The notes below the pieces were generated by a model. The model was not told the DNA's origin. It ran no database searches and was given only the letters and a program-made list of their open reading frames with translations. The position numbers and the translations under genes are program-made. From positions 1,120,001-1,184,000 of the forward strand of contig CAXXKM010000003.1 of assembly GCA_963664435.2 (NCBI GenBank): 64,000 bases of DNA, given 5' to 3'. Positions 21,510-60,437 of the stretch are shown in pieces (positions within the stretch are counted from its first letter, which is position 1; each line of letters opens with the position of its first letter). The DNA is from Longimicrobiales bacterium. Its GTDB lineage: Bacteria > Gemmatimonadota > Gemmatimonadetes > Longimicrobiales > Gaopeijiaceae.

Positions 21510-21574
21510 CGTGCCTTCTCCGCGTCAGGTGAAATGCGCGGTGGAATAGTCATTTGCTTACCGGTCGTCTGGTG

Positions 21575-21673: not shown

Positions 21674-21683
21674 GTTGAAGGGG

Positions 21684-32340: not shown

Positions 32341-32390
32341 CGCAACGACTTACGGGATTCCAGGGGTGGGATTCCCGCTTTTTATTCCCG

Positions 32391-33943: not shown

Positions 33944-33948
33944 GCGCG

Positions 33949-34263: not shown

Positions 34264-34285
34264 GGCGGGGTGTCCTCCCTGACGG

Positions 34286-35173: not shown

Positions 35174-35195
35174 TCCTCTCCCTCTCATCGGTCGT

Positions 35196-36233: not shown

Positions 36234-36427
36234 TCGTCCACCTCCTCGCCGTGCGGGTCGTTCCAGGCGGCCACGATCTCGTCCTCGGTCCCGACATCCT
36301 CGGGGAAGAGGCCGTACTCCTCGGCCAGGTAGGCCCGGACTTCGAGGGTCTCGCCGCCGTCGCGGGCGAGTTCGAGGTCGAAGTCCTCGAACGTCTCGAT
36401 GGGGATGGTTCCGCCGTTCCAGGTCAT
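36230..36427 (-). CDS. Small, very acidic protein (65 aa)
   Basis: AGGAGG RBS; overlaps both neighbours; 20 D/E against 2 R. Confidence 0.7.
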   Translation of the reverse strand: MTWNGGTIPIETFEDFDLELARDGGETLEVRAYLAEEYGLFPEDVGTEDEIVAAWNDPHGEEVDE

Positions 36428-39476: not shown

Positions 39477-39774
39477 GCGTGCAACACCCTTCCCGGAGGG
39501 ATCGATGCTGCGGGAGCGACCCCTGGAGGGCGTGGGGGCGAGTTGTGTGAAAACACACTCGCCGCTACGCCGCACCGAGCCTTCGGCGAGGGGGGTCGCT
39601 CCCGCCACGGCCGATGCGGCCCGTCCGGCAACGGGCGGGCGGGCCGCGAGGCCGCAAGACGCCACCGCGCAAGCGGATGGACGGAAGGCCCGGCGTGAAT
39701 CGCCGGAGGGCCGAATCGTGAAACGACCCCTCGCGTCGTTTTCACGCCGCGGTGCGGCACAGCACGCTGGCCGC

Positions 39775-40707: not shown

Positions 40708-41372
40708 CGCTCCTCCCCCGTCACCAGCGCCCGGTCGGCCTGGAGGTAGGTGATGAGGATGCCCATGGGGTTGTGGACGACCAGCTCGGGCGGGATCGAG
40801 TCGAGGAACTCGAACCGGAGCGCGACGGACCAGCGCTCGCGCAGGACCTCCTGTCCGGCCGCGAGATGCACGACCTCGAAGTCGGCCGTGGCGCCGTGCA
40901 GCGGCTCGGGCGAGGGATGGATGCGGAGCACGACCCGCTCGACCTGGCGTTCGGTCTCGGCCGTGCCGGCCGCCACGCTCGCGACCTCGTCACCGTCGCT
41001 GGCGAACGCGGCGTTCGCGAGTTCGGTCGACAGGAACCGGAGGCTCCGGGTCCAGTACTCCTGGACGGTCACGCGGCGGCGCGAGTGGAAGTCGTTGACG
41101 AACCGGTTCAGGAAGTACTTGGTCGTGGGATCGAGCGGATCGGCCTGGGCGGTGGCGGCCTCGTAGGCGAGCGCCTCGGCGCGCCCGACCTCGTCGACCC
41201 GCACCACGATGGGCTTGGGCGGCTCGGTGCCCGCGATGCGCAGCAGGACGAACACGCCGAGGACGCAGCTCGCGGAGAGGAAGATCAGGATCGTCCGCAG
41301 CTTCCGGTTCGCCTGCACCACCTCGCCCCATATCTCGGCGTACTCGCGGCCGGCGTTCCTGTCTCGTTTCAT
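40704..41372 (-). CDS. virB8: VirB8/TrbF-like protein
   Basis: One TM helix, PIVVRVDEVG, C-terminal NPMGILIT. Confidence 0.85.
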   Translation of the reverse strand: MKRDRNAGREYAEIWGEVVQANRKLRTILIFLSASCVLGVFVLLRIAGTEPPKPIVVRVDEVGRAEALAYEAATAQADPLDPTTKYFLNRFVNDFHSRRRVTVQEYWTRSLRFLSTELANAAFASDGDEVASVAAGTAETERQVERVVLRIHPSPEPLHGATADFEVVHLAAGQEVLRERWSVALRFEFLDSIPPELVVHNPMGILITYLQADRALVTGEER

Positions 41373-41392
41373 TACCAGGATCTCCTCATGTC

Positions 41393-42370
41393 TTAGACGG
41401 GCTTCGCGGGGACGGCGGCCTTGCTGGCGCCCTGCATGACGAGCGCGACGAACCCGGACCCGGCGGAGCCGGAGCCGGAGACCAGCATCGAGGCGAGTTC
41501 GCCGACCTTGAGCCCGGCCCAGAGGCCCGAGACGACGAGCGGCATGAGGACGACGGCCCAGAGCCAGAGCTCGCCCGCGTCGGCGGTGCCGGTGCCCATG
41601 AGGGCGTCGGCGTAGGTCGTGATGTAGCCGAGCCCGACGCCCATGAAGACGCGGAGCACGGCGCCGGCCACGACGCCGTAGAGCGTGTAGACCATCAGCG
41701 TCCTGAACCATCCCCAGAACAGGAACGAGAGCGGCTCGAAGAGCAGGAACGCGATGAACACGGGGCCGAGCAGGATCGCGATGGCGATCGCGACCTGCGC
41801 CCAGATCACCTGCGCGTAGGTGATGCAGAACAGCGCGAGCAGGCAGACCACGAGCGACGCGCCCATGCAGAGCGAGACCAGCGAGGAGAAGATCACGGTC
41901 ACGCCCGCAGTGACGATCGAGAGCAGGTTCCCGCCCGACCAGGCGGCGCTCAGGTGCGCGGAGTACGCCTGCACGAGCGCCGCCATCTCCGTGTAGCCTG
42001 CCGACACCACGTCGGACAGGAACAGGTTCTGGAGCCAGGCGCCTCCAGCCGCGATGGTGGCCGGGAACGTGAGCCCGACGCCCGGGATCGGCACGATGTA
42101 GTAGTGGAGCAGCGTGCGGGGGATGGCGATCCCGATCACGAGCTTGACGATCTCCCAGGGCTGGAACGTGCCGCTGAAGGCGATCTTGAGGCCCGTCCAG
42201 GCGACCATGACGGCGGCGAGCCCGCCCCAGAGCTGGAGCCCGAGCGTGTGCACGTCGGGCGCCGCGCCGCCGACCACGGTGTCGAGCACCACGTCCAGGA
42301 AGCTCTTGAAGTCCTGGAGCTGATCGTCAGGGATCTGCGTGGGTACGTTCGGATCGATCGACTGCTGCAT
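41393..42370 (-). CDS. virB6: VirB6/TrbL-like protein
   Basis: Polytopic membrane protein with LLGPVFIAFLLF..LFWGWFR. Confidence 0.82.
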   Translation of the reverse strand: MQQSIDPNVPTQIPDDQLQDFKSFLDVVLDTVVGGAAPDVHTLGLQLWGGLAAVMVAWTGLKIAFSGTFQPWEIVKLVIGIAIPRTLLHYYIVPIPGVGLTFPATIAAGGAWLQNLFLSDVVSAGYTEMAALVQAYSAHLSAAWSGGNLLSIVTAGVTVIFSSLVSLCMGASLVVCLLALFCITYAQVIWAQVAIAIAILLGPVFIAFLLFEPLSFLFWGWFRTLMVYTLYGVVAGAVLRVFMGVGLGYITTYADALMGTGTADAGELWLWAVVLMPLVVSGLWAGLKVGELASMLVSGSGSAGSGFVALVMQGASKAAVPAKPV

Positions 42371-42382
42371 CGCGAACGCCCC

Positions 42383-43291
42383 CTAGTTGCCGCCCGTGTA
42401 GAACGACGGGACACGCAAGAGCAGCCCGTCGCGGAGCGCGCCCCGGTTCCGGGAAGCCGCGTCGCGAAGCGTGCCCGCCATCGCGTTGGCGCGCGCCCGG
42501 CTCTCGCTCCACGCGGCGAGTTGTTCGAGCCGCGCGAGTTCGGCCAACTGCGCGCGGCTCGCCTCCCGGGCGGCCTGCTGGGCGAGCACCTGGGCCACGC
42601 CCGCGTTGATCCGGCCCTGGCTCAGCGCGGCCGCGACGCCGGCCTGCTGCAGAGCGGTGTTGGACAGATTGCCGTTCGCGGTCAGTCCGGCGAACGAGCC
42701 CTGCGCGCTCTCGATGGTCTCGGCGAGCGCGGACGCCGCGTCGAGCGTCGCGTAGTCGAGCACCCGCTGCCGGTCGGCGGCTTCGCGGGCACGGCGGTAG
42801 TCTTCGGCCGCGCGCGCCGCCGCCGCGGGCGGCTGGTCGCGGAACAGCGCGAGGATGTCGGCCTCGCTCACCCGGTCGGCCGCGCCCCGGGCGCTCCGCC
42901 ACAGTCCGGTGAACGAGCGGCCGCCTCGTCCGAAACCCCGGACCGCAGCGACCGTCTCGCGGGCCGTGCCCCGGAAGTCCGAGCCCCAGGAGAGCCCGTC
43001 GCGCACCAGTCCCACGGGCTCGGCGGCGAGCCGGGAGAACGGCGCGAGGAGCGCGTCGATCTCGCCGCGCGCGGCGCGCTCCATGTGGTCGAGCTGGTCC
43101 TCGAGCTCGGTGAGCTGGCGGGCCATCGACCGGATCTGGCTGACCTGGTTCGTGATCTGCCTGATCTGATTCGCGATGATCGTGGCCCGCTGGACCCAAC
43201 TGCCGAAGTCGAACTGGGCAGTCGCGGGCGCGGGGCTCGCAATGGTGAGAAACGGGACGAGCAGGGCGGGTGTGAGGATGCGGTATCGCAT
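42383..43291 (-). CDS. VirB5/TrbJ-like protein
   Basis: Signal peptide, ANQIRQITNQVSQI coiled coil, positioned before virB6. Confidence 0.65.
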   Translation of the reverse strand: MRYRILTPALLVPFLTIASPAPATAQFDFGSWVQRATIIANQIRQITNQVSQIRSMARQLTELEDQLDHMERAARGEIDALLAPFSRLAAEPVGLVRDGLSWGSDFRGTARETVAAVRGFGRGGRSFTGLWRSARGAADRVSEADILALFRDQPPAAAARAAEDYRRAREAADRQRVLDYATLDAASALAETIESAQGSFAGLTANGNLSNTALQQAGVAAALSQGRINAGVAQVLAQQAAREASRAQLAELARLEQLAAWSESRARANAMAGTLRDAASRNRGALRDGLLLRVPSFYTGGN

Positions 43292-43308
43292 GGGTGTGTC
43301 CTTTCGTG

Positions 43309-44568
43309 TCATCGGTGTGCGGTGGGGGTGGGAATGAGGACATCCGCAGTGAACCAGATGCGGAGCCGGTGGCCCGCGCGGATCGTGATCTCGGGCATCC
43401 GGTTCAGGAACCGGTCGAGTACGGAGGTGGCGCTGCCTCCGAGCCCCTGGCCGATGGCGGCCCGGAGGCCGTAGGGCGAGGCTCCGGCCAGCGTGAGTCC
43501 GCTCAGCGCGCCCACGGCGCCCGCGGCCGCGAACGTCGAGAAGTAGTGGCGGCTCACCTGGTCCTTGAGCGCGCCCTCGCCCGCCTGGTTCAGCCCGGCG
43601 AACTCAAGGTCGATCCAGCTTCCGTCGGGCATCAGCAGCCGGTGGAACGCGACCGCGAGTCGGCTCTGGTCGCGGTTCTGCGCGGCCCGGGCGGTGCCGG
43701 CGACGCGCGCGCCGCGCGGAACTAGGACCCGTTGCCGGTCCGCCGAGTACAGCGGCACCGACACCATGGCGAGCACGGGTCCGGGGAACTCGCCCGAGAG
43801 TTGGGTGAGCAGCACGGCTTCGAGGAACGAGCCCTCCCGGATCCGTTCCCAGCCGGGCGCGTCGGCGGGGACCACGTGCCGGCCGGGCTCCGCCGTGCCG
43901 GGTGCGCGAGTGCTCTGCGACAAAGCTCCTGCAGAGCCCGGCAGGAGCCCTTCGCCTGCCAGGACCGTCGGCATCTCCGCTTCGAGGGCGGCGACCGACT
44001 GCCCAAAGGACGCGAGCATTCGGTCGAGCTCGGCCTCGGGCGGCTCGGGCTCGACCGCCGGCAGGCGGGCGGCGTTCCGCGCCTCGTTCGGGTCCCTATA
44101 GGTCTGCGCGACTGGGATCGAGCGGAGCGAGCGCGCCTGCCGCTCGATCTCTTCGAGCCGGAGCGCCTCGCGAAGCTCGTACTCGGCCTGGACCATGCCG
44201 GCCACGCCATCCCATCCGCTTCCGGCTCCGCTTTCGCCTCCCGCTCCACTCCCGCCACCGGCCCCAGCCGTCTCGGCCTCGGCCTGACGGCGCTCCCTGT
44301 CGGCGCGGGCGTCGTCTGCCGCCGCCTGTAGGGCATGGCGTTCCGCCTCGGCGCGCAGCCGTCCCTCGAACGAGCGGCCCGCCCGGTCGTCCACGGCCTG
44401 CGCCTCGAAAGGGGCGGGGGCCATCGGGTCCTCTTCGGGACCCGTGAGCGACGACGAGAACAGCATGCCGGCGATGAGCACGCCGATAAGCGCGATCCCC
44501 GCCTTGGTGATGATGCCGCCCGGCAGCGCGCCCTTCGGCTCCTTGATCCACTGCTTCCAGCGGCTCAT
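43309..44568 (-). CDS. virB10: VirB10/TrbI-like protein
   Basis: EGSFLEAVL, VLVPRGA, RLAVAFHRLLMPDG and PEITIRAG motifs. Confidence 0.9.
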   Translation of the reverse strand: MSRWKQWIKEPKGALPGGIITKAGIALIGVLIAGMLFSSSLTGPEEDPMAPAPFEAQAVDDRAGRSFEGRLRAEAERHALQAAADDARADRERRQAEAETAGAGGGSGAGGESGAGSGWDGVAGMVQAEYELREALRLEEIERQARSLRSIPVAQTYRDPNEARNAARLPAVEPEPPEAELDRMLASFGQSVAALEAEMPTVLAGEGLLPGSAGALSQSTRAPGTAEPGRHVVPADAPGWERIREGSFLEAVLLTQLSGEFPGPVLAMVSVPLYSADRQRVLVPRGARVAGTARAAQNRDQSRLAVAFHRLLMPDGSWIDLEFAGLNQAGEGALKDQVSRHYFSTFAAAGAVGALSGLTLAGASPYGLRAAIGQGLGGSATSVLDRFLNRMPEITIRAGHRLRIWFTADVLIPTPTAHR

Positions 44569-45401
44569 CGCGCGTCTCTGGGCTCGAACCGCCAACCCGT
44601 CCGCTCGTCGCCGATCTGGAGCCATCCGTCGCCCAGCACGTGGCGGGCGACGTAGAGGCCGTCCTCCGTCAGATCGAACGCGACCAGGCTCGGCTCGCCG
44701 TCCCGCAGCTCGTAGAGCGCGGGCGCTTCCTGCGCGCGCGAGCGCAGATACGTGAACCGGCCGTCGTGCCACATCGCCTCGACGAGGAACGGCCGCCTTG
44801 ACGCATCCCGGTCCAACCGGTACTCGAACCGGAGACTTTCGGGATAGGAGGCGCGGAACGCCTCGATCTCCGCTTCCGCCGCAGCCTGGGTTCTGCGCGC
44901 CGCCTCGGCCGCCTCCGCGGCCATCTCCCGGTAGGCCGCGACCTCGCTCCGCGCGACGAACGCGGGCGCGCCCGCGCCGGACGTGCCCGCGGCCTCCGCG
45001 CCCTCCTCGACTCGGACGACCAGATGCGGGGGTTCGTCGCCGTGCTCCGCGACCAGAAACGAGTAGATGCGACCCGATTCGCAGACGAGCGCGATGTTGG
45101 TCGCCGCGTCCTCGGCTAGGGGCTTGAGGTACGCGACGTTCGCCGCGCCGGTCAGGTGCCAGTACTCCGAGTCGCCGGCCACGAAATCGAGGATGCGCTC
45201 GGATGCAGGGAGCACGATTACCGTAGTATGGCGTACGCGCGCGCGTACGCCATGGATCCGGTCCTGGCCGTCCTCGGCGGCCGGCACCCGGAGGAACGTC
45301 GCCTCCTCCTCGGGCTGCCTGGCGACTTTGTGTTCCTGGGCGGCCACTGGCAAGGCCCCCAACAGAAGCGTCAATGCGATAGGTATCGTTGCGGGTCTCA
45401 T
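44565..45401 (-). CDS. virB9: VirB9/TrbG-like protein
   Basis: Signal peptide, AGDSEYW, YLKP, WHDGRFTYL and EAPALY motifs. Confidence 0.88.
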   Translation of the reverse strand: MRPATIPIALTLLLGALPVAAQEHKVARQPEEEATFLRVPAAEDGQDRIHGVRARVRHTTVIVLPASERILDFVAGDSEYWHLTGAANVAYLKPLAEDAATNIALVCESGRIYSFLVAEHGDEPPHLVVRVEEGAEAAGTSGAGAPAFVARSEVAAYREMAAEAAEAARRTQAAAEAEIEAFRASYPESLRFEYRLDRDASRRPFLVEAMWHDGRFTYLRSRAQEAPALYELRDGEPSLVAFDLTEDGLYVARHVLGDGWLQIGDERTGWRFEPRDAR

Positions 45402-47854
45402 CGTGTTGTGTCCTCCTTGGGTCTAGGGGGTTGGGCGAGAGGGTTCGCCAGGACTTCGAGGGCCTTGGCGAGTCCGTGTCTCTTGACGGCCTCGGCCCGC
45501 CGCTCGGCGTCCAGAGGCGAGGACGTGTAGAGCCAGTAGCTCTCCGGATCGACTTCGAGGCGGAGCACGGCCGCCTCGTCCGGGCGCCGGAGATACAGTC
45601 CGCGCTTCGGCATCAGCTCCCGGATCCGCCCCACCTCCGACTCGTTCAGCCGGAACAGGTCGCCGACCTCGTCCGGCAACTCGGGGTTCGCCAGGAACAA
45701 CTTCGTCGGGATCGACTCCAGCAGCGCCGAGGCGCCGGGTGTTCCGGTCATGTCCACGGCCGACTGGGTCGCGAGCACGAGCGCGGCGTTCTTCTTCCGC
45801 CACGTCTTGGCCGCCTCGGCCAGGTAGGCGAGCACCGCCGGGTCGGCCAGGTAGCGCCACGCTTCGTCCACGACCATCAGCTTGAGCCGCGCGGCTTCCC
45901 GGGGGTCCTCGATCTCGAGGCGCATGCGTTCGAGCAGATAGGCCAGCGCCGCCTCGCACAGATCCGCGTGCTCGGCCGCGCCCGCCAGATCGATCACCTG
46001 CCAGTCCCGGAACTCGAGGTCGGCCCCGCCCACCGGAGCGTTGTCGAAGAACCGGCCCCAGACGCCGTCGCCGGTCCAGCGGCTGAGCGCCGGCCACATG
46101 GCGGCCGGGAGGGAGCCGGTCAGCACGCTCAGCGTGCGGCGCTCGGCTCCGAGCGCGTACAGGTCCTCGATCCGAGAGCGGATCTCGCTCGTGTCCGCGC
46201 CTGTCGGCTCGTATCCGCCGAGCCTCAGCAGGCGGAGCACCCAGCCGGTCAGGAACTGGAACGTGCGCGTGCCCGCGGGAAGCGCGAACGGCTGAAGGCT
46301 CAGCCCGGACTCGGCGTCGCCGCCGGGCGTGAGCTCGAGGTAGGAGCCCCCGAGGAACCGAGTCAGCCAGCGGTACGAGCCGCCCAGGTCCAGGATGAGC
46401 ACGCGCGGGCCGTACTTGAGCGCCTCGACCAGGAGGAAGTTGAGCGCAAAGCTCTTGCCCGAGCCCGTCGCGCCCAGGATCAGCGTGTGGCCCACGTCGC
46501 CGCGGAACAGGTCGTAGTGGTAGGTGGTGCGCCACGGCGTCTCGAACACCGCGAGCGACTCGCGGTCCAGGTGCCTGCACCGGGCCAAGCCCCGGGGTGG
46601 CCCGAACACGGGCGCGAGGCAAGCCGCGAGCCCGGCCGAAACGAACACCGTCCTCACCTGCCGCTTGCGGGGCTGGGCGGGCAGACGCGAGAACCAGACG
46701 GGCAGCTGGCCGTAGCCCTCGCGGACGGCCTTCGCGTCATGCGCGGCGAACAGGCGGCGCACGTCGCCGTCCAGCCGCTCGATCTCGTCAAGTTCGCCGT
46801 GGAGCGCAACGGTGAGCGACGCGTCGCCGTAGGCCACGCCGTCGGCTTCGAGTTCGACCAGCGCGGCGCCCAGCCGGTCCGACTCGACCGCGGCGGCCGA
46901 ATCGACCATCGCCGACGCCGTGCCCTCGGTCTCCTGCACATGCGCCATCATCGAGTAGCGGCGCGAGAAGTAGTGACGCTGCGCGCCCCGGATCCGGCGC
47001 CTGGCCGCTTCCACGGTCCACGGTCGCCATTCGAGCGAGACGGTCAGCGTCGCGTCCAGGCAGTAGAGATCCCTGAGCAGGTTCGCGTGGGCTTGGCCCG
47101 GCGGCGACAGAAGCGAATACAGGATCACCGGCTCACCGTCGAGCCTCAGGTGACTGCGCTCGGCCTCCAGCTCCGACAGTGCGAGCCGCCAGTTCATGCC
47201 GCTGCCGGTCGCGCCGTCCCACGCCATGCCCGGGCGGTTGATCAGTTCCGACAGCAGCCGGGACGCTTCCACGGCCCCCAGCATCTCGACCGGCGTGTGC
47301 TCGGCCACGAGCGACCGGCCCGCATCGACCATCGCGCGGAACCGGTCCGCCGCCGCCTCGACCTCGGACGCCAGATACGTCGGCGCTCCCTTCCTCCGTC
47401 GCTTGCGCAGCCGGGCGAGCCGGGCCAGCGGTCCGGACCGCGTGCGCTTGGCCACCGGACGGAGAGCGGACCCGAGCGACCAGACGACGTAGGCGTCGAG
47501 GCGCTGCACGCGGCGGTCGAGGAACGCGGTGCGCTTCCGCTTCGAGACGGCCGCGATGTCCGAGCCATACTCTTCGCTCCCCCGCGCGATGGCCGCCGGG
47601 CGCCGGAGCAGATAGAAGTAGAGGCGCGCGCTCGGGTCGAGTCCCGACAGCAGGCGCTGCCAGAGACCCAGCACCCGGTCGACCTGCTCCGGCGTGCGCC
47701 CGTCCACGGCGGCGGGCAACAGCCGGCCCGCAGCGATCAACTCGCCCGAGCGCGCCAGGCAGGTGCGGCCATCGTCGAGCCAGCCCCAGTAGGGCAGCTC
47801 CTCGGCCAGCGAGCCCGCCGCCTCATGCGCCCGAAGTTCCTCGGCGACTCTCAC
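45398..47854 (-). CDS. virB4: VirB4/TrbE ATPase
   Basis: GHTLILGATGSGKS, VVDEAWRYL, KTWRKKNA and ATQS motifs. Confidence 0.92.
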   Translation of the reverse strand: MRVAEELRAHEAAGSLAEELPYWGWLDDGRTCLARSGELIAAGRLLPAAVDGRTPEQVDRVLGLWQRLLSGLDPSARLYFYLLRRPAAIARGSEEYGSDIAAVSKRKRTAFLDRRVQRLDAYVVWSLGSALRPVAKRTRSGPLARLARLRKRRRKGAPTYLASEVEAAADRFRAMVDAGRSLVAEHTPVEMLGAVEASRLLSELINRPGMAWDGATGSGMNWRLALSELEAERSHLRLDGEPVILYSLLSPPGQAHANLLRDLYCLDATLTVSLEWRPWTVEAARRRIRGAQRHYFSRRYSMMAHVQETEGTASAMVDSAAAVESDRLGAALVELEADGVAYGDASLTVALHGELDEIERLDGDVRRLFAAHDAKAVREGYGQLPVWFSRLPAQPRKRQVRTVFVSAGLAACLAPVFGPPRGLARCRHLDRESLAVFETPWRTTYHYDLFRGDVGHTLILGATGSGKSFALNFLLVEALKYGPRVLILDLGGSYRWLTRFLGGSYLELTPGGDAESGLSLQPFALPAGTRTFQFLTGWVLRLLRLGGYEPTGADTSEIRSRIEDLYALGAERRTLSVLTGSLPAAMWPALSRWTGDGVWGRFFDNAPVGGADLEFRDWQVIDLAGAAEHADLCEAALAYLLERMRLEIEDPREAARLKLMVVDEAWRYLADPAVLAYLAEAAKTWRKKNAALVLATQSAVDMTGTPGASALLESIPTKLFLANPELPDEVGDLFRLNESEVGRIRELMPKRGLYLRRPDEAAVLRLEVDPESYWLYTSSPLDAERRAEAVKRHGLAKALEVLANPLAQPPRPKEDTTR

Positions 47855-48156
47855 TCGCTGCCTGCCCGGATCTTCAGGTGCCACGGCTCGTCCGTCCACT
47901 TGCCCGGATCGAACCGCGCCGGGTGGCGCGACGCCGCGCGGAGCACCGCGAGCATGGCCGGGTCCTTCCGGCCCGCGAGCCAGCCCGCGCCGTAGCAGCC
48001 GGCGAAGATCACGCCGCCCGCCACCAGCGAGGCCGTCGCGTTCCAAACCGAGAGCGCGAGCGTGGCGCCCAGCAGGAACAGCCGCCGCTCGACACCCAGT
48101 ACGGTCAGCGGACGGTTGAGCGCGGCGTAACCCGGCCAGCGCCTCAAGCCCCGCAT
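47851..48156 (-). CDS. virB3: VirB3/TrbD-like protein
   Basis: ALNRPLTVLGVER...KDP motif. Confidence 0.85.
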   Translation of the reverse strand: MRGLRRWPGYAALNRPLTVLGVERRLFLLGATLALSVWNATASLVAGGVIFAGCYGAGWLAGRKDPAMLAVLRAASRHPARFDPGKWTDEPWHLKIRAGSE

Positions 48157-48443
48157 CAGAACAGCCAGGCCAGGAAGTTCACGGCGCCGACGGCCATCCC
48201 GATCCCGAAGATGATCCCGGCCAGCGTGCGCTTGCTGCCGCCCTCGCCGAACGCGAACATCAGCCCGCCGACCACGATCGCGATCAGCGACAGCCCGCGC
48301 GCGATCGGACCCGTGAACTGCGTCTGTAGCTCGTCCACCGCCTCGACCCACGGGCTCGTCCCCTGCGCCAGCAGCACACCCGGCGTCAGCGCCAGCAGCG
48401 CGGCCCAGGCGGCCGCCTTCAGCGTTCTCGACAACGTTCTCAT
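48156..48443 (-). CDS. virB2: VirB2/TrbC pilin
   Basis: SPW...FTGPIARGLSLIAIVVGGLMFAFGEGG. Confidence 0.9.
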   Translation of the reverse strand: MRTLSRTLKAAAWAALLALTPGVLLAQGTSPWVEAVDELQTQFTGPIARGLSLIAIVVGGLMFAFGEGGSKRTLAGIIFGIGMAVGAVNFLAWLF

Positions 48444-48991
48444 TCGCTCTCCTCCTCGGGAGTCAGTTGTGGTGTTGGCGCCGGGGCGTCGTCCCCGACC
48501 CGGTCGTGCTCGATCCGCTCGTCCATCCATTCCAGGACCTCCGACTCGATCCAGCGCACCGCGCGCCCGCTCAGCCGGACCGCCCGCGGAAAGCGCCCGT
48601 CCGCCGACCAGTCGTAGATCGTCGTCCGCGACAGGCCGGTCAGCGCCTCGACTTCCGAGATCCGCAGGAAACGGATCGTCGGCCTCGTTCTCGCAGTCCT
48701 CCGGTCTCTACTCATCGCTCCACTCCGGTTCGTCTTCCTCCACCGTCTCGCCGGCCTCGGCGCGACAGGCCGGGCGTACCGAGCCATCGCAGCGGCCGGA
48801 TCCGCCTCGTAGGCGGCCAGGAAGGCCAGAATCCGGTCCGCCGTCCTGAGCGACGGCGAGCGCCCCCGCTCGATCTGGCGCAGCAGGTTCGGGTCGCCCA
48901 CCGCCAGCATGCCGAGCGTCGTCGGACTCATGCCCGTGCTGCCCAGAAACGCGTTCAGCCGTGCGTTGAATTGCTCCTCCAGGGTCTGCAT
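48440..48991 (-). CDS. Cro-like HTH fused to an AlpA-family regulator
   Basis: GMSPTTLGMLAVGDPNLL..GRSPSLRTADRI plus FLRISEVEALTGLSRTTIY..GRFPR..RAVRWIESEV. Confidence 0.82.
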   Translation of the reverse strand: MQTLEEQFNARLNAFLGSTGMSPTTLGMLAVGDPNLLRQIERGRSPSLRTADRILAFLAAYEADPAAAMARYARPVAPRPARRWRKTNRSGAMSRDRRTARTRPTIRFLRISEVEALTGLSRTTIYDWSADGRFPRAVRLSGRAVRWIESEVLEWMDERIEHDRVGDDAPAPTPQLTPEEESE

Positions 48992-49657: not shown

Positions 49658-52237
49658 TCAGTTCGTGACGACCACGGCCCGGTACTCCGTTGGGTCCCGA
49701 AGGCCGTAGCCCTCACCCGTGACCTGTAGAACGCGGACCCGGTACAGAGCGAACTGGTTGCGGTCCGGCACGTGGAACTGCATGAGGGAACCCGGCCGGA
49801 GAACGCCCGCCACGACGATCTGATGGCGCTCCCCTGTTCCGGATTCGTACAGCTCAAGACCGGGAGCCCGCACGGCGTCGATTGTGGGACCCTCCAACTG
49901 CAGCAGGACGCCGATATCGGCTCTCGCTGCCGGCCCACTCCACTCGACCGTCAGGAAACCCGGATCCGGTACGGTGGCGGCCGGGGCGGTTGGCGCTATC
50001 GCATCACCGGTGCATGACCAGGTCATTGCGGCTGCGAGCAGCACGGTGAGCGCCCATCCGGCCTTGCCCGCCCGGCGACCCGTGCCGCGGACTCGCGAGC
50101 GTCCGCGGCGCCTGGAGTTCCCCCGCCGTCCGGCTGCCGCAGCCCCGAGGAGGGCGGCGCCCGAGGTGGGACTGGAATCGGTAGGTGTTCCTCCGCACCG
50201 GGCTTCACCTCTTCGGCAGCGCTCGATCCAGGAGAGCAGGTCCCCGAGATCGTAGCCGCCGTTCCGGTTGCCCAGAAGGTCGAGCGCGGCCTGCCGGGCC
50301 TCGCTGAGCGTCCCCTCACCGAACAGCGCCGCGGCGGCCTCGTCCGGGCTCAACCCGTCCGCTACGGCCAGCGCCTCGTCCGCGACAGCCAACGGGTCTT
50401 CCACCACATCGCCGCTGGCCACGTCACCCGAGCTCGCCGACTGCCGCCAGTCCACCTTATGGCTCGGGTCGTGGCCCAGCCCCGCGTGCGTCAGGTCTGC
50501 GTCCGCACCTGTAGCCTTGGACCTGATCGTGCCACCGTTGAGCCGAAGCGTGTTCGCGACCACCGCGATCCCTTGGGTTGAAAGATTAGGCTCCACCACC
50601 ACGTGGGCGAACGTCATGTCGTCCCCTCCGCCGCTCTCGTAGCTGGCCCACTTCTCGCCCCAGTGCGCCGGGTCCATGTCGATCTTCAGCTGCGGCGTGC
50701 CCGTCACCTCCACCGGCTGGCTGAAAGTCAGCGTCACGCGGATCGTATCGCCCAAGACATAGGTGCTGTCCGCGCCGGCGTCCGATGACACGTTCACGCC
50801 GGTCGCCTCCGGCGCCGACGGCCCCTGGATCGTCGCCGAGGGGGAGTTCGACAGCGGTCGACCGTCCGGCGTGCAGATCGCGGCTGCCGCCGAGCAATCG
50901 GTCGTCGCCGCCAGCGTCACGGTCACGTCCTCGGAAGAGAGCGGCCGCACCGTGATGATCCAGCGCTGGTTCTGGTTCTGCGCCGCCCGGCGCGCGCGCG
51001 TCACTTTGCCGTTCGTCGCACTAAGCGCCTCGTCCCTGAGCTTCTTGTAGGGCAGCTTCCCGGGGAAGTTCTCGCTGAAACGAAGCTCGAAGCTAAAGTC
51101 GGCGCGCCTGCCGCCGTGCGAGGCCGGCACGTCGTGGAACGCCGCCGTCAGCGGTGCACTGTCGTCCGAGGCGGTCACAGACACGGGTTTCGAGGGCGCG
51201 AAACTACCCCCCGCCTCGAGCGAAACACGGAAGCTGTAGACCGTCCCGGCGCTCAGTCCGGTCACTGTGTGCGCCACCGCGTCGGCGGCAAGCTTCGCCA
51301 CCCTGCTCCAGGTCCCATCCGCCTGCTGCTGTTGCACTTCGCTCCAGACCTCACCCACCGACGCCGCCTGCGCTACCCACACGGCTTGATCCGGTAGCGT
51401 CCATGCTAGGTCGACCGTAGTCTGTGTCGCGTTCGACGCCGTCAAGCCGGTGGGCGGTTTCAGATGCTCCTGCGTACTCGTCCACGTCGCGACTTCGGAA
51501 TTCGCCTGATAGTTGTCGGTGAAGTGACTGACGCGGAAGTAATCAGTGTGACCCCATCCGTGTGATATCCTCATTGTTCGCGAGGTTGAGTCCGCATGGA
51601 TTGGCGCCAGTCCATAAAAGTGGAAATCCGGGTATGCCGACACGTGAACTTCCACCTTGGTCACGACCACGCCCTCGGGGTGGACGGGCGGCGTCCAGGA
51701 CAGATCGACCGTCTTCCCGAACTCGTTCGAAAACGTGAGGTCCGTCGCGGGCTTCGGAGCCAGGATGGTCACCGGCGCGTCGGAGAACTTCGGCACCAAG
51801 GTGCCGTCGGTGTAGAGCAGGGCCGCGGGTATCCCATTCGGGTACCCCGGAGAGGGGGGCGAGTTGGGGACCTCGTCCGGATCGTAGCTCACCGTGACTG
51901 TCTGCCCCGGTTCCGCACGCGTGTCGAATTCGAGTGTGGCCGTCCAGGCGTTCCACTTCATCTCAGTCGGATGCACGCTGGCGCTGTCCGAGATCCCGGC
52001 GACCGTGAACCCGTGCACGACCTGTTTGGGCATCCCTAACCCCACCGCCTTATCGAATCGGAGTGTCAGCGTCGTCCCGTCGATCCTCGCGTACTCCAGC
52101 CCCGGGGGCATGGTGTCCTGTGCCGCAGCAGTCCCGGCACCCGCCAGCAGGGCGAGGGCCAGGGCGAGTGCCGCCTGCCACGGACGCGCGAGGCACGCCA
52201 ATCCGTCCGGCTTAGTCCTTTGACCAATCATGTTCAT
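49658..52237 (-). CDS. Secreted multi-domain surface protein (SwmB-like, Fn3, Ig-like)
   Basis: Signal peptide AAAQD, DGTTLTLRFD..VTVSY, Fn3 KPPTGLTASN..LSAGTVYSFRV, C-terminal LDLLGNRNGGYDLGDLLSW. Confidence 0.8.
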   Translation of the reverse strand: MNMIGQRTKPDGLACLARPWQAALALALALLAGAGTAAAQDTMPPGLEYARIDGTTLTLRFDKAVGLGMPKQVVHGFTVAGISDSASVHPTEMKWNAWTATLEFDTRAEPGQTVTVSYDPDEVPNSPPSPGYPNGIPAALLYTDGTLVPKFSDAPVTILAPKPATDLTFSNEFGKTVDLSWTPPVHPEGVVVTKVEVHVSAYPDFHFYGLAPIHADSTSRTMRISHGWGHTDYFRVSHFTDNYQANSEVATWTSTQEHLKPPTGLTASNATQTTVDLAWTLPDQAVWVAQAASVGEVWSEVQQQQADGTWSRVAKLAADAVAHTVTGLSAGTVYSFRVSLEAGGSFAPSKPVSVTASDDSAPLTAAFHDVPASHGGRRADFSFELRFSENFPGKLPYKKLRDEALSATNGKVTRARRAAQNQNQRWIITVRPLSSEDVTVTLAATTDCSAAAAICTPDGRPLSNSPSATIQGPSAPEATGVNVSSDAGADSTYVLGDTIRVTLTFSQPVEVTGTPQLKIDMDPAHWGEKWASYESGGGDDMTFAHVVVEPNLSTQGIAVVANTLRLNGGTIRSKATGADADLTHAGLGHDPSHKVDWRQSASSGDVASGDVVEDPLAVADEALAVADGLSPDEAAAALFGEGTLSEARQAALDLLGNRNGGYDLGDLLSWIERCRRGEARCGGTPTDSSPTSGAALLGAAAAGRRGNSRRRGRSRVRGTGRRAGKAGWALTVLLAAAMTWSCTGDAIAPTAPAATVPDPGFLTVEWSGPAARADIGVLLQLEGPTIDAVRAPGLELYESGTGERHQIVVAGVLRPGSLMQFHVPDRNQFALYRVRVLQVTGEGYGLRDPTEYRAVVVTN

Positions 52238-52266
52238 CCTCGAGTTCGCCTCCTGTTTCGCAGGGA

Positions 52267-52304
52267 GTTTTGCGCGCGATAACGGGATTTATCGCGCGCA
52301 AAAC
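52267..52304 (+). repeat. lox-like recombination site 1
   Basis: GTTTTGCGCGCGATAA-CGGGAT-TTATCGCGCGCAAAAC: perfect 16-bp inverted arms around an asymmetric 6-bp core. Confidence 0.88.
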
Positions 52305-52338
52305 GCGCGGTCCTTGCGACCGAACCGGAGGCCACTCG

Positions 52339-53322
52339 ATGCCAGATGCAGACACAAAACCACACATAGATGCCTTGACCGGTGCAGAATCAGACGCGGA
52401 GGTGGCGGAGCAGTTAGCTCGCTTCTTCGAGACGGTTAGCAGCGCCTTCAGCCGCAACACGGAACGGGCGCTGAGGGCCGACCTGCGGGTATTCCTCGCC
52501 TGGTGCCAGCAGGACGGCATGTTGGCCGTGCCCGCGGGCCCCAACACCTTGATCGCCTTCATCGACGACGTGGGCAGCAGCAGGGCTCCGGCCACCGTGC
52601 GCCGCTACGTATCCAGCATCGCTACGCTCCACAAGACGCTACGCCTGCCGAACCCGGCGGACAGCACGGCCGTGAAGCTGGCCCTCCAGCGGATGTACCG
52701 GAACCGGGGACGCAGACAAACGCAGGTGACGGGGCTGACCTGGCCGCTCCGGAACCGACTGATCAAGGCGGCGGGAAAGCGGCTGATCGACGCGCGGAAT
52801 CGCGCGCTGCTAGCCGTGGCCTACGACACGCTGTTGCGCCGATCCGAACTGGTGTCGCTGGACGTGTCCGACCTGGTGGAGGAAGCCGATGGTTCCGCAA
52901 CGCTGCTCGTGCGAACGAGCAAGACGGATCCCGAGGGGGCAGGCGCCATGCTCTTTCTCGCGCGCGACACGGTGAGGATCGTCAAGATATGGCTCGGCCG
53001 CAGCGGGACGGCCGGGGGGCGGCTGTTCCGTTCGGTCCGTAAGGACGGCTCGGTGGGGGAGCAACTCCCTCCGAGTCAGGTGCCCCGCATCTACAAGTCG
53101 ATGGCCCTGCGTGCCGGGCTTCCCGCCGACACCGTGGACGCCTTGGCGGGGCACAGCACGCGCGTGGGGCCGGTTCAAGACATGATTGCCTGCGGAATCG
53201 AGTTACCGGCGATCCTGCAGGCCGGGCGCTGGAAGAGTGCGCGGATGGTGCAACGCTACGGCGAGCGACTGCTGGCGCGACGTAGCGGCGCGGCGCAATT
53301 GGCCGCCAGGCAGCAGCGCTGA
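52339..53322 (+). CDS. Cre-like tyrosine recombinase
   Basis: YDTLLRRSEL (R), RTSKTD (K), GHSTRVG (HxxR), QAGRW (W), MVQRY (Y); GGAGG RBS. Confidence 0.92.
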   Translation: MPDADTKPHIDALTGAESDAEVAEQLARFFETVSSAFSRNTERALRADLRVFLAWCQQDGMLAVPAGPNTLIAFIDDVGSSRAPATVRRYVSSIATLHKTLRLPNPADSTAVKLALQRMYRNRGRRQTQVTGLTWPLRNRLIKAAGKRLIDARNRALLAVAYDTLLRRSELVSLDVSDLVEEADGSATLLVRTSKTDPEGAGAMLFLARDTVRIVKIWLGRSGTAGGRLFRSVRKDGSVGEQLPPSQVPRIYKSMALRAGLPADTVDALAGHSTRVGPVQDMIACGIELPAILQAGRWKSARMVQRYGERLLARRSGAAQLAARQQR

Positions 53323-53464
53323 AGATTGCCTCTTCGTAGAGGTCTTAAGGACTTGCGGCCGACGGTCGGCATGACCGCTGCTCCCGGTCCTCTTCCTCCG
53401 ACTGGCGCCCGAGACTGCGGTCACATATCTTTTGACGGCGTCACAGAGATGCGATCAACTAGCT

Positions 53465-53498
53465 GTAGCGCGCGATAAATCCCGTTATCGCGCGCAAC
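53465..53498 (-). repeat. lox-like recombination site 2, inverted relative to site 1
   Basis: GTAGCGCGCGATAA-ATCCCG-TTATCGCGCGCAAC; its reverse complement is identical to site 1 over 30 bp. Confidence 0.88.
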
Positions 53499-53789
53499 GC
53501 GGACCGAAGATGTTCTGAGGACATCACCCATTCGGGCCCTCCTGTTCCATCAATTGGCGTCTTCCGGGCGAATATCGAATCACTGTGCCCGTCAAGTCGC
53601 TCTCTTTATTCACACCCGGCAGGGCTCGCCGCGTTCCTTAGGGAACCCGCGGCCGGCCGACGGACTGAATCGCCGTTCGGCCTGCCGGACTGGCTGAGAC
53701 CTCTTGCAAGGAGCATGCCCGTCGCATTGGGCAGCGCTCGCATCGTGGCGGGGCGGGAGGCAGGGGTGTGCCGAGGGCCTGTTACCTTC

Positions 53790-54180
53790 GTTGCTCCGTC
53801 ATGGCCAAGCAGCCATCCGCTACCATCACCGCGAAGCGGGACACGCGAACCCGGCCGACAACAAAGGGGTGTGCCGCGTCCTGGGCATCACCGGCCCGGC
53901 TGCGAAAGACCGCACCACGAAACAGGCTGCCGCGCTGACGGCCCGGGCGGTGGAGGCGATCCGTACTACCGCCCATGTGACGTGCACCGGACCCTGGGCG
54001 GTCGGACCGAGGACGCGCACGGCCCGCCACCGCAGACGCGTGGGCATGGCGCTCATTCAGTGATGCGGGACGCCATGCTTCGCCGCTCCGAGAATGTCGC
54101 GGTCATCTGAGCCGACGTGGGATTCGAGAACGACGGGTCGGCAGGGGTCTTTCATGCGCCGCTCAAAGAGCGACTAGGAG
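53790..54180 (+). pseudogene. Degraded second Cre-like recombinase
   Basis: AAIRYHHREAGHANPADN..KQAAALT..; MRDAMLRRSE, stop, DGS..RRSKSD, stop. Confidence 0.75.
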
Positions 54181-56288: not shown

Positions 56289-57368
56289 TTGACACAGCTA
56301 ACGTCGGAAATTGACGCTGCACGCCGTCGCGTCGTGTCGGATGGTTATGACATGTCGCTAGGTGAGCTGATCAGTCTCTACAGAGAAGAGGAACTGTTTA
56401 TCAACCCGGTCTATCAACGCTATTTTCGTTGGAACCACTCCCAGAAGACGCGCTTCATCGAGTCGCTATTGCTGGGAATACCGACTCCCCCGATTTTCGT
56501 ATTCCAGCGGCCCGAGGGAACCTGGGAGCTCATCGATGGCCTGCAGCGGCTCTCCACTGTGTTCGAGTTCGTCGGCGTACTAAAGGACAATGGTGAACCG
56601 CGTGAGGCTTCCAGTCTTTCGGGCACGAACCTCGTTCCAAGCCTCGCTGGCGTCAAGTGGACCTCGCTGCCTCGCGTAAATCGCCTTGATCTCAGGCGCT
56701 CGCGCATACGCGTCGAGATTCTCAAGAAGGAGAGTGATGAGGAAGCGAAATTCGAACTCTTCCAGAGGCTCAATACAGGGGGATCTCATCTCTCAGCACA
56801 GGAAGTTCGGAATTGTGTGCTGGTGATGGTGAAACAGGCCTTTCATGATTGGCTAAAAGCTCTGACCGAATATCCGTCATTTAGGACGACTGTGGTTCTT
56901 AGCGAGGCTGCGCGCCAGGAACAGCGAGATATGGAAATCGTCCTTCGATACATTGCATATCGACGTTCACCATATTCGCCGGGTCGCGACGTTAATGAAT
57001 ACTTGGATCACGCCGCCCTGCGGCTTGCACGAGACATGACTTCCGAGTCGCGCCAACAAGAGGAAGAAGGCTTTCACAGAAGCTTCGATTTGCTGGAATC
57101 AGCCTTGGCTGGTGACGCGTTCAAGAAATGGAATGGGCATGAGCATGGTGGCGGTTTTCTGATTTCGGGATTCGACGCCATCGCTCACGGCTTGGCCTGC
57201 AATCAAGAGGAGATTTGCAATCAAGCGGACCCGCCTTCCTGGGTAAGGGACCGGGTTCGCTCGGTCTGGCAAGAAGAAGAGTTTCAGAAGTACTCTGGGC
57301 AAGGGGTACGTGGAACAACGAGACTGAGATATCTATTGCCATTCGGCGAAACTTACTTTGCACCATGA
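56289..57368 (+). CDS. DUF262 (GmrSD-like ParB/Srx) protein
   Basis: PVYQRYFRW, IESLLLGIP, LIDGLQRL and FQRLNTGG motifs. Confidence 0.9.
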   Translation: MTQLTSEIDAARRRVVSDGYDMSLGELISLYREEELFINPVYQRYFRWNHSQKTRFIESLLLGIPTPPIFVFQRPEGTWELIDGLQRLSTVFEFVGVLKDNGEPREASSLSGTNLVPSLAGVKWTSLPRVNRLDLRRSRIRVEILKKESDEEAKFELFQRLNTGGSHLSAQEVRNCVLVMVKQAFHDWLKALTEYPSFRTTVVLSEAARQEQRDMEIVLRYIAYRRSPYSPGRDVNEYLDHAALRLARDMTSESRQQEEEGFHRSFDLLESALAGDAFKKWNGHEHGGGFLISGFDAIAHGLACNQEEICNQADPPSWVRDRVRSVWQEEEFQKYSGQGVRGTTRLRYLLPFGETYFAP

Positions 57369-58018
57369 TGAAAATCCGAACCGCTGAACAGCTTCAAGAG
57401 GTCCTAGATGCCGATTTTAGTTGGCGCCTGAAGGAGATTGCTGATATTCGGTCAGCGGCTGAGTCAGCGAGATTGGGATCGCAGAAAACGCTAATTCGGG
57501 CTGGCGTGGCGCTATTATATGCGCATTGGGAAGGGTTTGTCAAGCAGAGCACCACAACCTATATACGCTATGTGTCATGCCAACGTCTGCGACACTCGGA
57601 GCTGCGATCGTGCTTTGTGGCGCTTAGCTTAAAGGCAAGGCTTCATCAAATTGGTGAGTCCAATAAGGCCAACGTCAATGTCCAGGCGTTGGAGGCCATC
57701 CTGGACGGACAGCGCCAACGTGCAAGTTTCGCGTGGCGGGATCCGATTACGAAGACCGCCAACATGAAATCGACGGTGTTTGTTGAGATCGCGTGCTGGG
57801 TCGGTCTCAATGTGACACGGTACGAACCAAAGTGGCGTTTTATTGATGATCGGCTTGTGAAACGTCGGAACGCCATCGCCCACGGTGGCGGAGGCGATCT
57901 CGAGCTAGATGAGACGGGATTCAAGGAGCTAGCGGGGGGTGTGATTGAACTGTTGCGGTGGTTCAAGACGGATATCGAGAATGCAGTGTCCAACAGAGCT
58001 TTCCTAAGAGCGGGATGA
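57365..58018 (+). CDS. MAE_28990-like HEPN nuclease
   Basis: WRLKEI, LLYAHWEGFVK and RRNAIAHG (Rx4H); ATGA overlap with the DUF262 gene. Confidence 0.85.
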   Translation: MMKIRTAEQLQEVLDADFSWRLKEIADIRSAAESARLGSQKTLIRAGVALLYAHWEGFVKQSTTTYIRYVSCQRLRHSELRSCFVALSLKARLHQIGESNKANVNVQALEAILDGQRQRASFAWRDPITKTANMKSTVFVEIACWVGLNVTRYEPKWRFIDDRLVKRRNAIAHGGGGDLELDETGFKELAGGVIELLRWFKTDIENAVSNRAFLRAG

Positions 58019-58092
58019 AGAGACAGACCAGTATGGACCGGAGCGAGCGGACCAAACACGTCGCTTTAGCATCCCTGGAAGGGGATGCTGCC

Positions 58093-60120
58093 TCAAACAA
58101 GCGCTCGATTCACTCGATTGACCAGTTCGCCCCACGCGATACGTTCGTCGTCGGTGAGGTCTCCGGCACCGTGCTCGCGCGTCCACCGCAGGTAGGCCTT
58201 CGCAAGTCGGTACTTGGAGAAGTCGGCGACCTCGGCCGCGAGTATGTCAACGATCGGTCGTCGGGGCTGTTTTTCCGCGACTTTCGTGGCATCCCAGCCA
58301 AGCTGGGTTCGGGCTACGTCGAGGAGGGTGTGCCGAAGCAGATCTTCTATCTCGGGTCTGTTGATCTTGCCGGGGCAAACATCGCCGGTTCGGAGGATTT
58401 TCCTGTTCCCGAGAGTGTGGATCAGTGTCTCCTGCTTGGCGGCTTGATCCCCGGCGTTGTCGGAGTCCAGCAGGGCAGCGACCTTGAGATTGTTCGCATG
58501 AAGGATGGTGGCGAAGTAGACAACCTTGCCCGCACTGTTCGCAGGGAGCAGAGCAATCCTTGGATTGAGGTCGGCCAAGCCGGCATCCCGCAGCAGGTGA
58601 GCAGTGGCATCGAAGTACCAGAAGTCGGTGAGGCCTTCCAGAACTAGGTTTCGTTGCTGAACAAACAGACTCTGAGCGAGGTCGTACCCCAGGGCTTCCT
58701 GTAGTGGCAGAAGCGCGGCAGGGTCACTCGCCGTGACGCTCGTATGCACCTTAGTACCCTCGTCCCGGTCGTTCATCTCGACCACGACGACCAGATCCAG
58801 TTCCTCGGGCCCGACCAGAAACGGCGAGTGCGTCGTATAGATAGTCTGGTTGCCTTCGGCCAGCCGCGAGAGGGTCTGGCGGAAGTCACGCTGCTTGAGG
58901 CCATGGAGGCTCAGCCCCGGCTCGTCCAGCAGAAGGATGGCGTTGGAGTGAGCGTCATCGGCCTCGGCGAAGAAGACAACAAAGAACGACACAAGCCACT
59001 GGAATCCTGCGGAGCGCTGATCGATCTCGATCTCGACACCAAGTTCATCCTCGACCACCGCCTTGAGGTACTGACCGTCCGCTCGTATCCGCACGGTGTC
59101 CGCTTCAGGGCGAGTCCGATCAGGCTTCCAGATCGAGCGGATCTCGTCGGTGAGACGGACGCTGGCAGCGTTGAGCGTGAAACCGCGCTCGTCGAGCTGG
59201 CTACGGTAACGGTCGAACGCGTCTTGGTCGTCCCCCGGATCAGGAGCGTCGCCTAGGTTCGCAAGTACGCGGGGATTGAAGCCGAGGAGCTTAAGGAGGC
59301 AGAGGTTCCCGTAGTCATAGCGGTCATCGTCAAGGACGCCGTGTTCGACACGGTCGGCGAAACGGCGCAGGTGGAGATTGGGGCGTACTCGGAAATAGTT
59401 GTCGAAGTAGACAATCCGTGGCAGCCGACTGCGGAGCTTCGCCAGGGCCAAGTCACGCTGCTCGGGTATGCGCGTGTACTCGAGGAGCCGAGTGTGGCGT
59501 TGATCCTGAGTAACATCGTTCTCGTCGAGGAACTCGAGTGCCGAGTCGAGCCAGCGCTGCAGCTCATGCGCGCGGTCATCGTCGATCTTGGTCGCCCCGA
59601 CCTGCCATCCGGCAGTGATATCGTCGAGACGCGCGCGGAGCCCCTGCTCGGGATTTGCTTCGGGTGCGCCGCCCCGCTTGTCGGCATGCGTAGCGAAACG
59701 TATCAGGTCCTTGCGCACCTCTTCGGTGAACACTGCGAACTCCAGAGTGCCTTTGAGCCACTGCGTCAGCCCGTTGTCGAGGTGTCGGGTGCAGCCGTAC
59801 TCCGCAGTAGCAGGAAACCCTTCGGGCAGTTCAGTGAGATCGTCCGGCTCCAACGCGAACCGAGCGGACGCGACGGGAATCTCACTGGGATTGCGCTTCT
59901 GCGACTGGATGTCGGCGTTGTAGAGTTTGCGGGGGTAGTCGCGCAGAGCATCGAACCCCTTTACGCCGTCAGGAGGATTGATCTGTCGAAGTGCTTCAAG
60001 GACCGCAGTCTTGCCGGCCTCGTTGGGTCCTATGAGAATCGTCTTGGCACATTCGACTCCGAACCACCCGGTGTCACGGACACAGCGATAGTTCCGCACG
60101 CGAACGTGAGTCAATCTCAT
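58093..60120 (-). CDS. OLD-family ABC ATPase/TOPRIM nuclease
   Basis: GPNEAGKT, RSAGFQW, LLLDEPGLSLH, TTHSPF, VLEGLTD and LLDSD motifs. Confidence 0.88.
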   Translation of the reverse strand: MRLTHVRVRNYRCVRDTGWFGVECAKTILIGPNEAGKTAVLEALRQINPPDGVKGFDALRDYPRKLYNADIQSQKRNPSEIPVASARFALEPDDLTELPEGFPATAEYGCTRHLDNGLTQWLKGTLEFAVFTEEVRKDLIRFATHADKRGGAPEANPEQGLRARLDDITAGWQVGATKIDDDRAHELQRWLDSALEFLDENDVTQDQRHTRLLEYTRIPEQRDLALAKLRSRLPRIVYFDNYFRVRPNLHLRRFADRVEHGVLDDDRYDYGNLCLLKLLGFNPRVLANLGDAPDPGDDQDAFDRYRSQLDERGFTLNAASVRLTDEIRSIWKPDRTRPEADTVRIRADGQYLKAVVEDELGVEIEIDQRSAGFQWLVSFFVVFFAEADDAHSNAILLLDEPGLSLHGLKQRDFRQTLSRLAEGNQTIYTTHSPFLVGPEELDLVVVVEMNDRDEGTKVHTSVTASDPAALLPLQEALGYDLAQSLFVQQRNLVLEGLTDFWYFDATAHLLRDAGLADLNPRIALLPANSAGKVVYFATILHANNLKVAALLDSDNAGDQAAKQETLIHTLGNRKILRTGDVCPGKINRPEIEDLLRHTLLDVARTQLGWDATKVAEKQPRRPIVDILAAEVADFSKYRLAKAYLRWTREHGAGDLTDDERIAWGELVNRVNRALV

Positions 60121-60437
60121 CGTCGTGGCTCCAAGGGTTGTAGCTCGCCTGCCCGGCACCATGTTGGAGGGCGGCGGCTTGGTGGGCAAGTGTCAGCGGT
60201 GTCCCGCTCGGCCTTCATCTTCGACAGTGATCCGGTCCGTGCATCCAAACTAGCCCCAGCCGCGCTTGAGCGCGCCTCGTCGGAGCCCACTCAAGCCTGC
60301 GAGCGAAGCGTGACGTTACGCCCGTCGCCCGGCGACCGAGGTGCCGCACCGACATCGTCGGGTCCCCAAGTGGCCGTGCTCCGTCAATCGGGGAAGACCA
60401 AGCCGTGTAACTCGTTTGAGTGTTTTCCGCAGCGCGG

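Follow-up and report, generated by a model that had tools for sequence, protein, structure and literature searches.

Several described systems invite comparison with the locus reported here. The Hin/hix layout of Salmonella is a segment of about 1 kb that holds the invertase gene and an outward promoter. At the fimS, UpaE and Bacteroides switches the recombinase is encoded outside a short switch, whose repeats are not known to be palindromes of the lox type. Cre, in its natural role as described, resolves replicon dimers with one site per replicon, and it exchanges strands over a 6-bp overlap within an 8-bp spacer. The subject of this work is a window of 64,000 nucleotides (the whole stretch analysed: contig CAXXKM010000003.1, positions 1,120,001 to 1,184,000, forward strand) from the genome of a Longimicrobiales bacterium, in which the gene of a Cre-type tyrosine recombinase stands between two inverted lox-like sites beside an adhesin-like gene. 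This module, a Cre-type self-inverting cassette paired with adhesin-like genes, is real and not an ordinary arrangement. To judge from sequence comparison, the recombinase very probably flips its own 1.2-kb segment, and we consider it likely that the cassette is a rarely-ON phase-variation (ON/OFF) switch for adhesin-like genes.

The accessible part of PMC11868660 describes Hin, hix and the flagellar switch, Hin being a serine recombinase that needs Fis; the same source and PMC6083910, likewise in its accessible part, report promoter inversion by tyrosine recombinases that controls an adhesin or surface structure. Some loci of that sort are carried by conjugative elements. In the accessible parts of PMC10250229 and PMC3082901, Cre-type enzymes (SCre/SloxP, VCre/VloxP and the YR series) are treated as tools, with no natural inverted pair described there, and a 13-8-13 palindromic site with an asymmetric spacer less than 1 kb from the gene is taken to mark the Cre type. 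A literature search found no description of the present module, most subscription papers and bioRxiv supplements lying outside its reach.

The cassette and its immediate surroundings comprise the following features, in window positions (L numbers denote loci of the cassette family):

49658-52237, minus strand: gene of a secreted adhesin-like protein of 859 residues, with an SwmB-type repeat at residues 40-119 and an FN3 domain at residues 261-354
52249-52254, minus strand: Shine-Dalgarno-like AGGAGG of this gene, read from the sequence
52267-52304: site 1, a lox-like palindrome with perfect 16-bp arms (52267-52282 and 52289-52304) around the core CGGGAT (52283-52288)
52339-53322, plus strand: gene of a Cre-type tyrosine recombinase of 327 residues (PF00589), within the predicted invertible segment, assigned by structure match and alignment of catalytic residues
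53432-53460, plus strand: outward-facing sigma-70-like promoter candidate, TTGACG-17-TCAACT with a weak -10, from sequence and matrix score
53465-53498: site 2, a lox-like palindrome inverted relative to site 1, with perfect 11-bp arms (53468-53478 and 53485-53495) around the core ATCCCG (53479-53484)
53499-53752: conserved non-coding right flank, faced by the promoter candidate in the present orientation, common to three copies in this genome, L006, L184 and others
54039-54152, plus strand: piece of a second tyrosine recombinase, now decayed, with 39% identity to residues 153-190 and an in-frame stop

The recombinase resembles Cre over its full length. Cre is its top solved-structure match (E 2.9e-29, residues 17-313), the best such matches (17 sequences) are all Cre or Cre-derived, and residues R167, K195, H272, R275, W298 and Y307 align with the catalytic set of Cre, leaving the R-K-H-R-W-Y hexad intact. 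Against five close copies the ratio of non-synonymous to synonymous polymorphism (pN/pS) is 0.08-0.16, indicating purifying selection. Matches to the NCBIfam XerC and XerD equivalogs reach 29-35 bits, with cut-offs near 330, and the protein is of the tyrosine type (PF00589) and does not have the serine recombinase fold of Hin.

Sites 1 and 2 together form a perfect 30-bp inverted repeat, the top-ranking inverted pair within 10 kb, with 1196 bp from core to core and the recombinase gene inside, as in an invertible-promoter switch. A better reading of site 1 is the 34-bp 13-8-13 form (52269-52302), with the overlap region in its central 6 bp; such a palindrome with an asymmetric spacer is present less than 1 kb from the recombinase gene. 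Because the cores are inverted, exchange between them would flip the segment. Across the 4.5-Mb genome, sites built around a 6-bp core, with up to four mismatches in 22 arm bases, number seven: six are the site pairs of three cassette copies (0-1 mismatch) and one is a stray with four mismatches.

The adhesin-like gene lies head-to-head with the recombinase gene, its open reading frame starting outside site 1 and pointing away, and is the likely target of the switch. A preliminary description of this DNA had claimed a Cre-like recombinase with an intact R-K-H-R-W-Y set, two inverted palindromic sites with the reverse-complementary cores CGGGAT and ATCCCG, and a site 1 lying 30 bp from the ATG of the surface gene, with room for a ribosome-binding site only. 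All three claims hold: the first through the structure match and aligned residues, the second through the inverted-repeat analysis, and the third through a measured distance of 29 bp between the ATG (52237) and the long arm of site 1, in which AGGAGG is found. The N-terminus of the 859-residue protein is signal-peptide-like, judged by eye and not by a prediction program. As to its other end, residues ~620-859 (window 49661-50100) show an EF-hand/dockerin-like motif, an Arg-rich stretch, a hydrophobic segment and a lipobox-like WSC, and pieces matching this C-terminal part occur apart at 298 kb of contig C2 and 1770 kb of contig C3; it may be a fusion or sorting module.

Relatives of the cassette were collected by a protein scan (33 loci) and by pattern scans (36 metagenome loci and 80 of 82 genome loci), excluding the many pattern matches with no related recombinase within 2.5 kb. 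When searched at family level, 13 of 151 genomes and 28 of 314 had the enzyme. Named loci come from four phyla (Gemmatimonadota, Acidobacteriota, Pseudomonadota and Chloroflexota), the closest being L006 from a Gemmatimonadetes metagenome-assembled genome (MAG), at 98%. One sequencing run containing the window stretch is labelled sponge metagenome, and the other MAG series bearing the cassette presumably come from sponges as well. Both sites accompany 52 of the 56 near-full-length enzymes in a first set and 44 of 54 rows in a second; deduplication left 90 distinct two-site cassettes of 1058-1446 bp.

The cores of the two sites are exact reverse complements in 87 of these 90 cassettes, even though the core sequence itself varies over 20 types. 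Counted by position, site-to-site mismatches number 13 just before the core, then 2, 1, 0, 0, 0 and 0 within it, and 7 just after, i.e. 3 mismatched cells in 540 for the 6-bp core versus 13/90 and 7/90 at the flanking spacer bases. Strand exchange over a 6-bp overlap in an 8-bp spacer would be expected to leave such a footprint, and since Cre-type exchange needs matching cores, the 87 matched pairs are what it would call for. Among the first 52 cassettes 51 cores matched, against a mean of 8.1 and a maximum of 18 for shuffled partners, without correction for kinship. The 19 matched core types imply many paired changes, several of them among close relatives, though kin are not independent; the recombinase tree (47 of the 52 sequences, 7 rows out of frame) served only to place core changes among close relatives. 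The genome itself offers one such case. The cassette is present in it three times (protein identity 97% and 95%), every copy having its own pair of sites and all sharing one orientation; in the two other copies site 1 reads CTGGAT and site 2 the reverse complement of this, the one-base difference from the CGGGAT of the window copy being found at both sites, in step. In the second copy an IS630-like transposase (DDE_3; C3:550013-551146) breaks the surface gene.

Two further kinds of site came to light. The long cassettes of 1.3-1.4 kb (L009-L013, L015-L022, L025-L029) have a lone half-site ~200 bp inside site 2, about 110-145 bp past the recombinase stop, possibly an autoregulatory or directionality site; the short form in the window has none. 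A second group (L039-L074, L104, L109, L117, L118, L137) consists of single palindromic sites without this recombinase, with the same inner arms and a common outer flank, some in Acetobacteraceae MAGs, and these are perhaps targets of a related recombinase.

As a rule the neighbour on the outer side of site 1 is a large gene leading away from it. In 71 of the 90 cassettes a gene so placed is surface-protein-like, a count that is partly circular as the library was built from such genes, and 19 of 29 left-side proteins, two of them from loci without a site pair, have FN3, cadherin-like, Calx-beta or LRR domains in Pfam. Beyond site 2 there is a conserved non-coding stretch, followed by regulators or defence genes. 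In the right flanks of L034, L214-L217 and L226-L236, GTGA(C) motifs recur in the stretch from site 2 to the gene of a hybrid sensor/OmpR-type regulator, and these may be binding sites of that regulator.

Promoters were scored with a sigma-70 matrix against 40 shuffles per region, the region inside site 2 being its last 100 bp. An outward promoter just inside site 2 exceeds z 2 in 25 of 90 cassettes and an inward one in none of the 90; inside site 1, toward the surface gene, the count is likewise 0/90. The TTGACG and TCAACT pair of the window has the best outward score of its region (z 3.2). L007 has TTGACG-17-TACAAT at the homologous position, near-consensus elements being found in both L007 and L008. 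The pair at 53432-53460 is a fair candidate for the promoter of the switch. An inward promoter in the right flank, which could reset the switch, is not enriched (z>2 in 6 of 89, mean z -0.02, window z -0.3).

Within assembled sequence, both orientations of the Cre-type module are documented between relatives. The enzymes of L238 and L283 are 88% identical; with their segments aligned forward (92%) their flanks are reversed (96.6% and 88.4%), and the switch points fall at the sites, the outer arms remaining with their own flanks. L238 has an intact enzyme, with an FN3 gene downstream of it on the same strand. L239 and L240 share flanks of 98.4-98.6% identity over 1.5 and 5.3 kb around a reversed segment, and in L239 an insertion of ~1.4 kb splits the 5' end of the enzyme. 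L030, which has no paired relative, is probably another intact copy in the flipped state. Junctions of the flipped type also occur in broken remnants: in L075 a promoter end 80% like that of L151/L103 adjoins a flank resembling the one on the surface-gene side of L018, and others are seen in L181/L211, L202/L210 and L106/L177. In L230 a junction of the flipped type matches L240, from the same assembly, at 99%, but the L230 contig ends inside the enzyme and its other end is not the continuation. Among about 14 broken remnants, met unsystematically, 5 are of the flipped type (L075, L211, L210, L239, L177), the common type being represented by L035, L178, L179, the second site of L181, L189, L237, L241, L272 and L282. 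Relatives found flipped are about 58-75% identical to the window enzyme (flipped pairs about 58-62%). Three candidates were discarded: L154, whose core is merely near-palindromic, and L138 and L147, proposed by their regulator neighbours, whose flanks show the common orientation.

For the window copy, 23 sequencing runs were listed, none of them RNA. Assembled contigs from four runs in three studies showed no strand-change joint, a result that does not speak against inversion, since contigs drop rare variants and a perfect 30-bp inverted repeat should create no new 31-letter word upon inversion. A joint of 71 bases at 53393-53465 is consistent with the promoter end of the other genome copies, which has diverged.

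Taken together, we propose that each of the four site arms is bound by the recombinase, that strand exchange takes place within the 6-bp cores, and that the inverted cores would lead to a flip of the 1.2-kb segment holding its own gene and the outward promoter. In the present orientation the promoter would fire into the right flank and the adhesin-like gene would be silent; after the flip the promoter would lie ~70 bp ahead of the adhesin start codon, and the gene would be expressed from a transcript that probably starts at the site and has the site hairpin as its 5' end. A population mostly in the first state would amount to a rarely-ON switch, moved between symbionts on conjugative islands. 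The comparisons establish the class of the enzyme, the layout of its sites, the co-variation of the cores and the occurrence of both orientations in relatives; from these we infer that this particular enzyme catalyses the reaction, that the window's own copy flips, that the promoter is active and that its inversion has an ON/OFF effect. A more speculative extension, tentative at best, is a self-resetting latch: the flip would turn on the adhesin and newly transcribe the recombinase, which would flip the segment back and make ON a short pulse, while core variants would act as orthogonal barcodes, insulating some copies and letting others swap adhesin genes between islands. Such a latch would explain why the flipped state is seen in one or two of the 90 cassettes with both sites but in 5 of about 14 broken remnants.

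Several observations weigh against the switch interpretation. A strict promoter and terminator scan of the window returned 0 and 0, TTGACG-N17-TCAACT failing the consensus because its -10 has no A at position 2. The hexamer pair is degenerate in the two other copies of the genome (best outward z 0.5 and -0.1), 27 of the 90 cassettes have an outward score at or below their own shuffles, and the matrix behind these scores is of the E. coli type. In many relatives 100-400 bp separate site 1 from the start codon, enough to accommodate a separate promoter, and the cores mismatch in L095, L233 and L236. As for orientation, one of the 90 two-site cassettes is clearly flipped (L238) and one probably (L030), no flipped copy is found among the 11 two-site copies at least 73% identical, the window's included, and free Cre-type inversion would give an even mix, unlike these lopsided cassettes. 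Either of two accounts fits the bias: a switch that resets itself for as long as its enzyme works, or selection in the sampled hosts against cells in the ON state. Two predictions of the preliminary description are supported in part: inversion of the ~1.2-kb segment is supported by relatives from the same bacterial family, which have it in both orientations with breakpoints at the sites, but none of the closest copies is flipped; the outward TTGACG-N17-TCAACT is present and such an element is enriched family-wide, but it is not kept in the other two copies of the genome.

The segment might also flip with a main output other than the surface gene, the promoter driving what lies beyond site 2, or the flip controlling the recombinase, with the surface gene having its own promoter. 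In the short-cassette subfamily a hybrid sensor-regulator gene begins outward about 170-200 bp past site 2, the common orientation faces that side, and outward promoter scores are raised in the right flank too (z>2 in 26 of 89). We find this unlikely: the right neighbour varies (a LuxR gene pointing inward, defence genes, the decayed recombinase in the window), whereas the constant partner is a secreted-protein gene directed away from site 1, and besides the 29 bp before the ATG in the window, left flanks show no outward promoter signal (z>2 in just 4 of 89). Alternatively, the sites could serve mainly to recombine copies located on different islands, so that surface genes are shuffled between elements and local flips are by-products. 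Single-site exchange needs neither a second, inverted and core-matched site nor an outward promoter, and many genomes hold one copy with both sites intact, which makes it quite improbable as the main function. Nevertheless, genomes with up to 5-7 copies often have a single core type, flanks of the right type stand on both sides of L015, 96% alike outward of the site, and apparently of L009 too, the same right flank stands beside unrelated surface genes in the window and L184, and left flanks diverge directly after the site. Such exchange also happens, and we rank it as a side activity.

A switch family in which the window copy is a locked or near-silent relic is very improbable, the enzyme being intact and under purifying selection (pN/pS as above), both sites perfect over 30 bp and the core change of this lineage made at both; what speaks for it is the absence of flips among the 11 closest copies, the weak -10 and the broken surface gene of the second C3 copy. 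Integration products or transposon ends were rejected on established Cre logic, since integration of a circle gives direct and not inverted cores. Amplification of the 2-micron style also seems unlikely, given a segment of 1.2 kb in which no origin is apparent.

The cassette rides on a conjugative island of roughly 50 kb at a tRNA-Val gene, with this core:

32266-48991, minus strand: carrier island core, with tRNA-Val (32266-32340), an integrase gene (32391-33557), ArdC, a coupling protein, VirB8/B6/B10/B9/B4/B2-like genes and AlpA

A 43-bp repeat of the tRNA-Val end bounds the island 50 kb to the right, outside the window (C3:1202466-1202508), and related island cores recur several times across the genome. 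On the other side of tRNA-Val lies a second small integrated element with relaxase and integrase (29296-32218), present in many copies genome-wide, and at 56289-60189 GmrSD_N, HEPN (MAE_28990-like) and AAA_15/AAA_21 ATPase genes form defence-like cargo. Elsewhere, the end of contig C3 (1778193-1794204) repeats 16 kb of the window (9957-25985) at 99.9%, including a 1548-residue repeat surface protein (21684-26330), by recent duplication or assembly overlap, and contig C2 has a cluster of 17 tRNA genes (689401-692178).

If the switch reading is correct, Cre-type recombinases gain a natural job in switching gene expression, beyond the replicon resolution so far described. It points to phase variation of FN3, cadherin, Calx-beta and LRR surface proteins of sponge symbionts, proteins thought to mediate contact between symbiont and host. 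The switch junction can be assayed by two polymerase chain reactions, and the ~90 enzyme-site pairs with 20 natural core variants are material for recombinase engineering.

Among known systems, Cre/loxP of phage P1 is the closest in enzyme and site: best structure match, catalytic hexad, a 13-8-13 palindrome next to the gene and a need for homology over the central 6 bp. The preliminary description saw a possible use of the recombinase and its site as a tool orthogonal to Cre/loxP; the inner arm bases of the window sites resemble those of SloxP, lox9 and lox11. By hand count site 1 has 8 of 13 arm bases in common with SloxM1, as given in the accessible part of PMC3082901, and the 8-bp spacer of SloxM1 there is identical to that of L088 and L147; the prediction table in the accessible part of PMC10250229 has two rows with a half-site like that of the cassette family and a 7-bp spacer. 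What separates the window gene from Cre-type systems is that two inverted sites bracket it, and the nearest plasmid relatives, 48-50% identical, had no such perfect-arm palindrome near the gene in the three of three examined. The layout, a predicted invertible segment of about 1 kb with its own invertase gene and a candidate outward promoter for a surface gene, is that of Salmonella Hin/hix, but the enzyme is a tyrosine recombinase and its sites are fully palindromic and lox-like. With E. coli fimS (FimB/FimE), the UpaE autotransporter switch and the Bacteroides invertible promoters, as described in the accessible parts of PMC6083910 and PMC11868660, it would share promoter inversion by a tyrosine recombinase to control an adhesin or surface structure; it differs in that enzyme, candidate promoter and sites form one module of 1.06-1.45 kb paired with many unrelated surface genes. 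The layout is like that of Hin/hix and the proposed output like that of fimS or UpaE; the enzyme and its site are of the Cre type.

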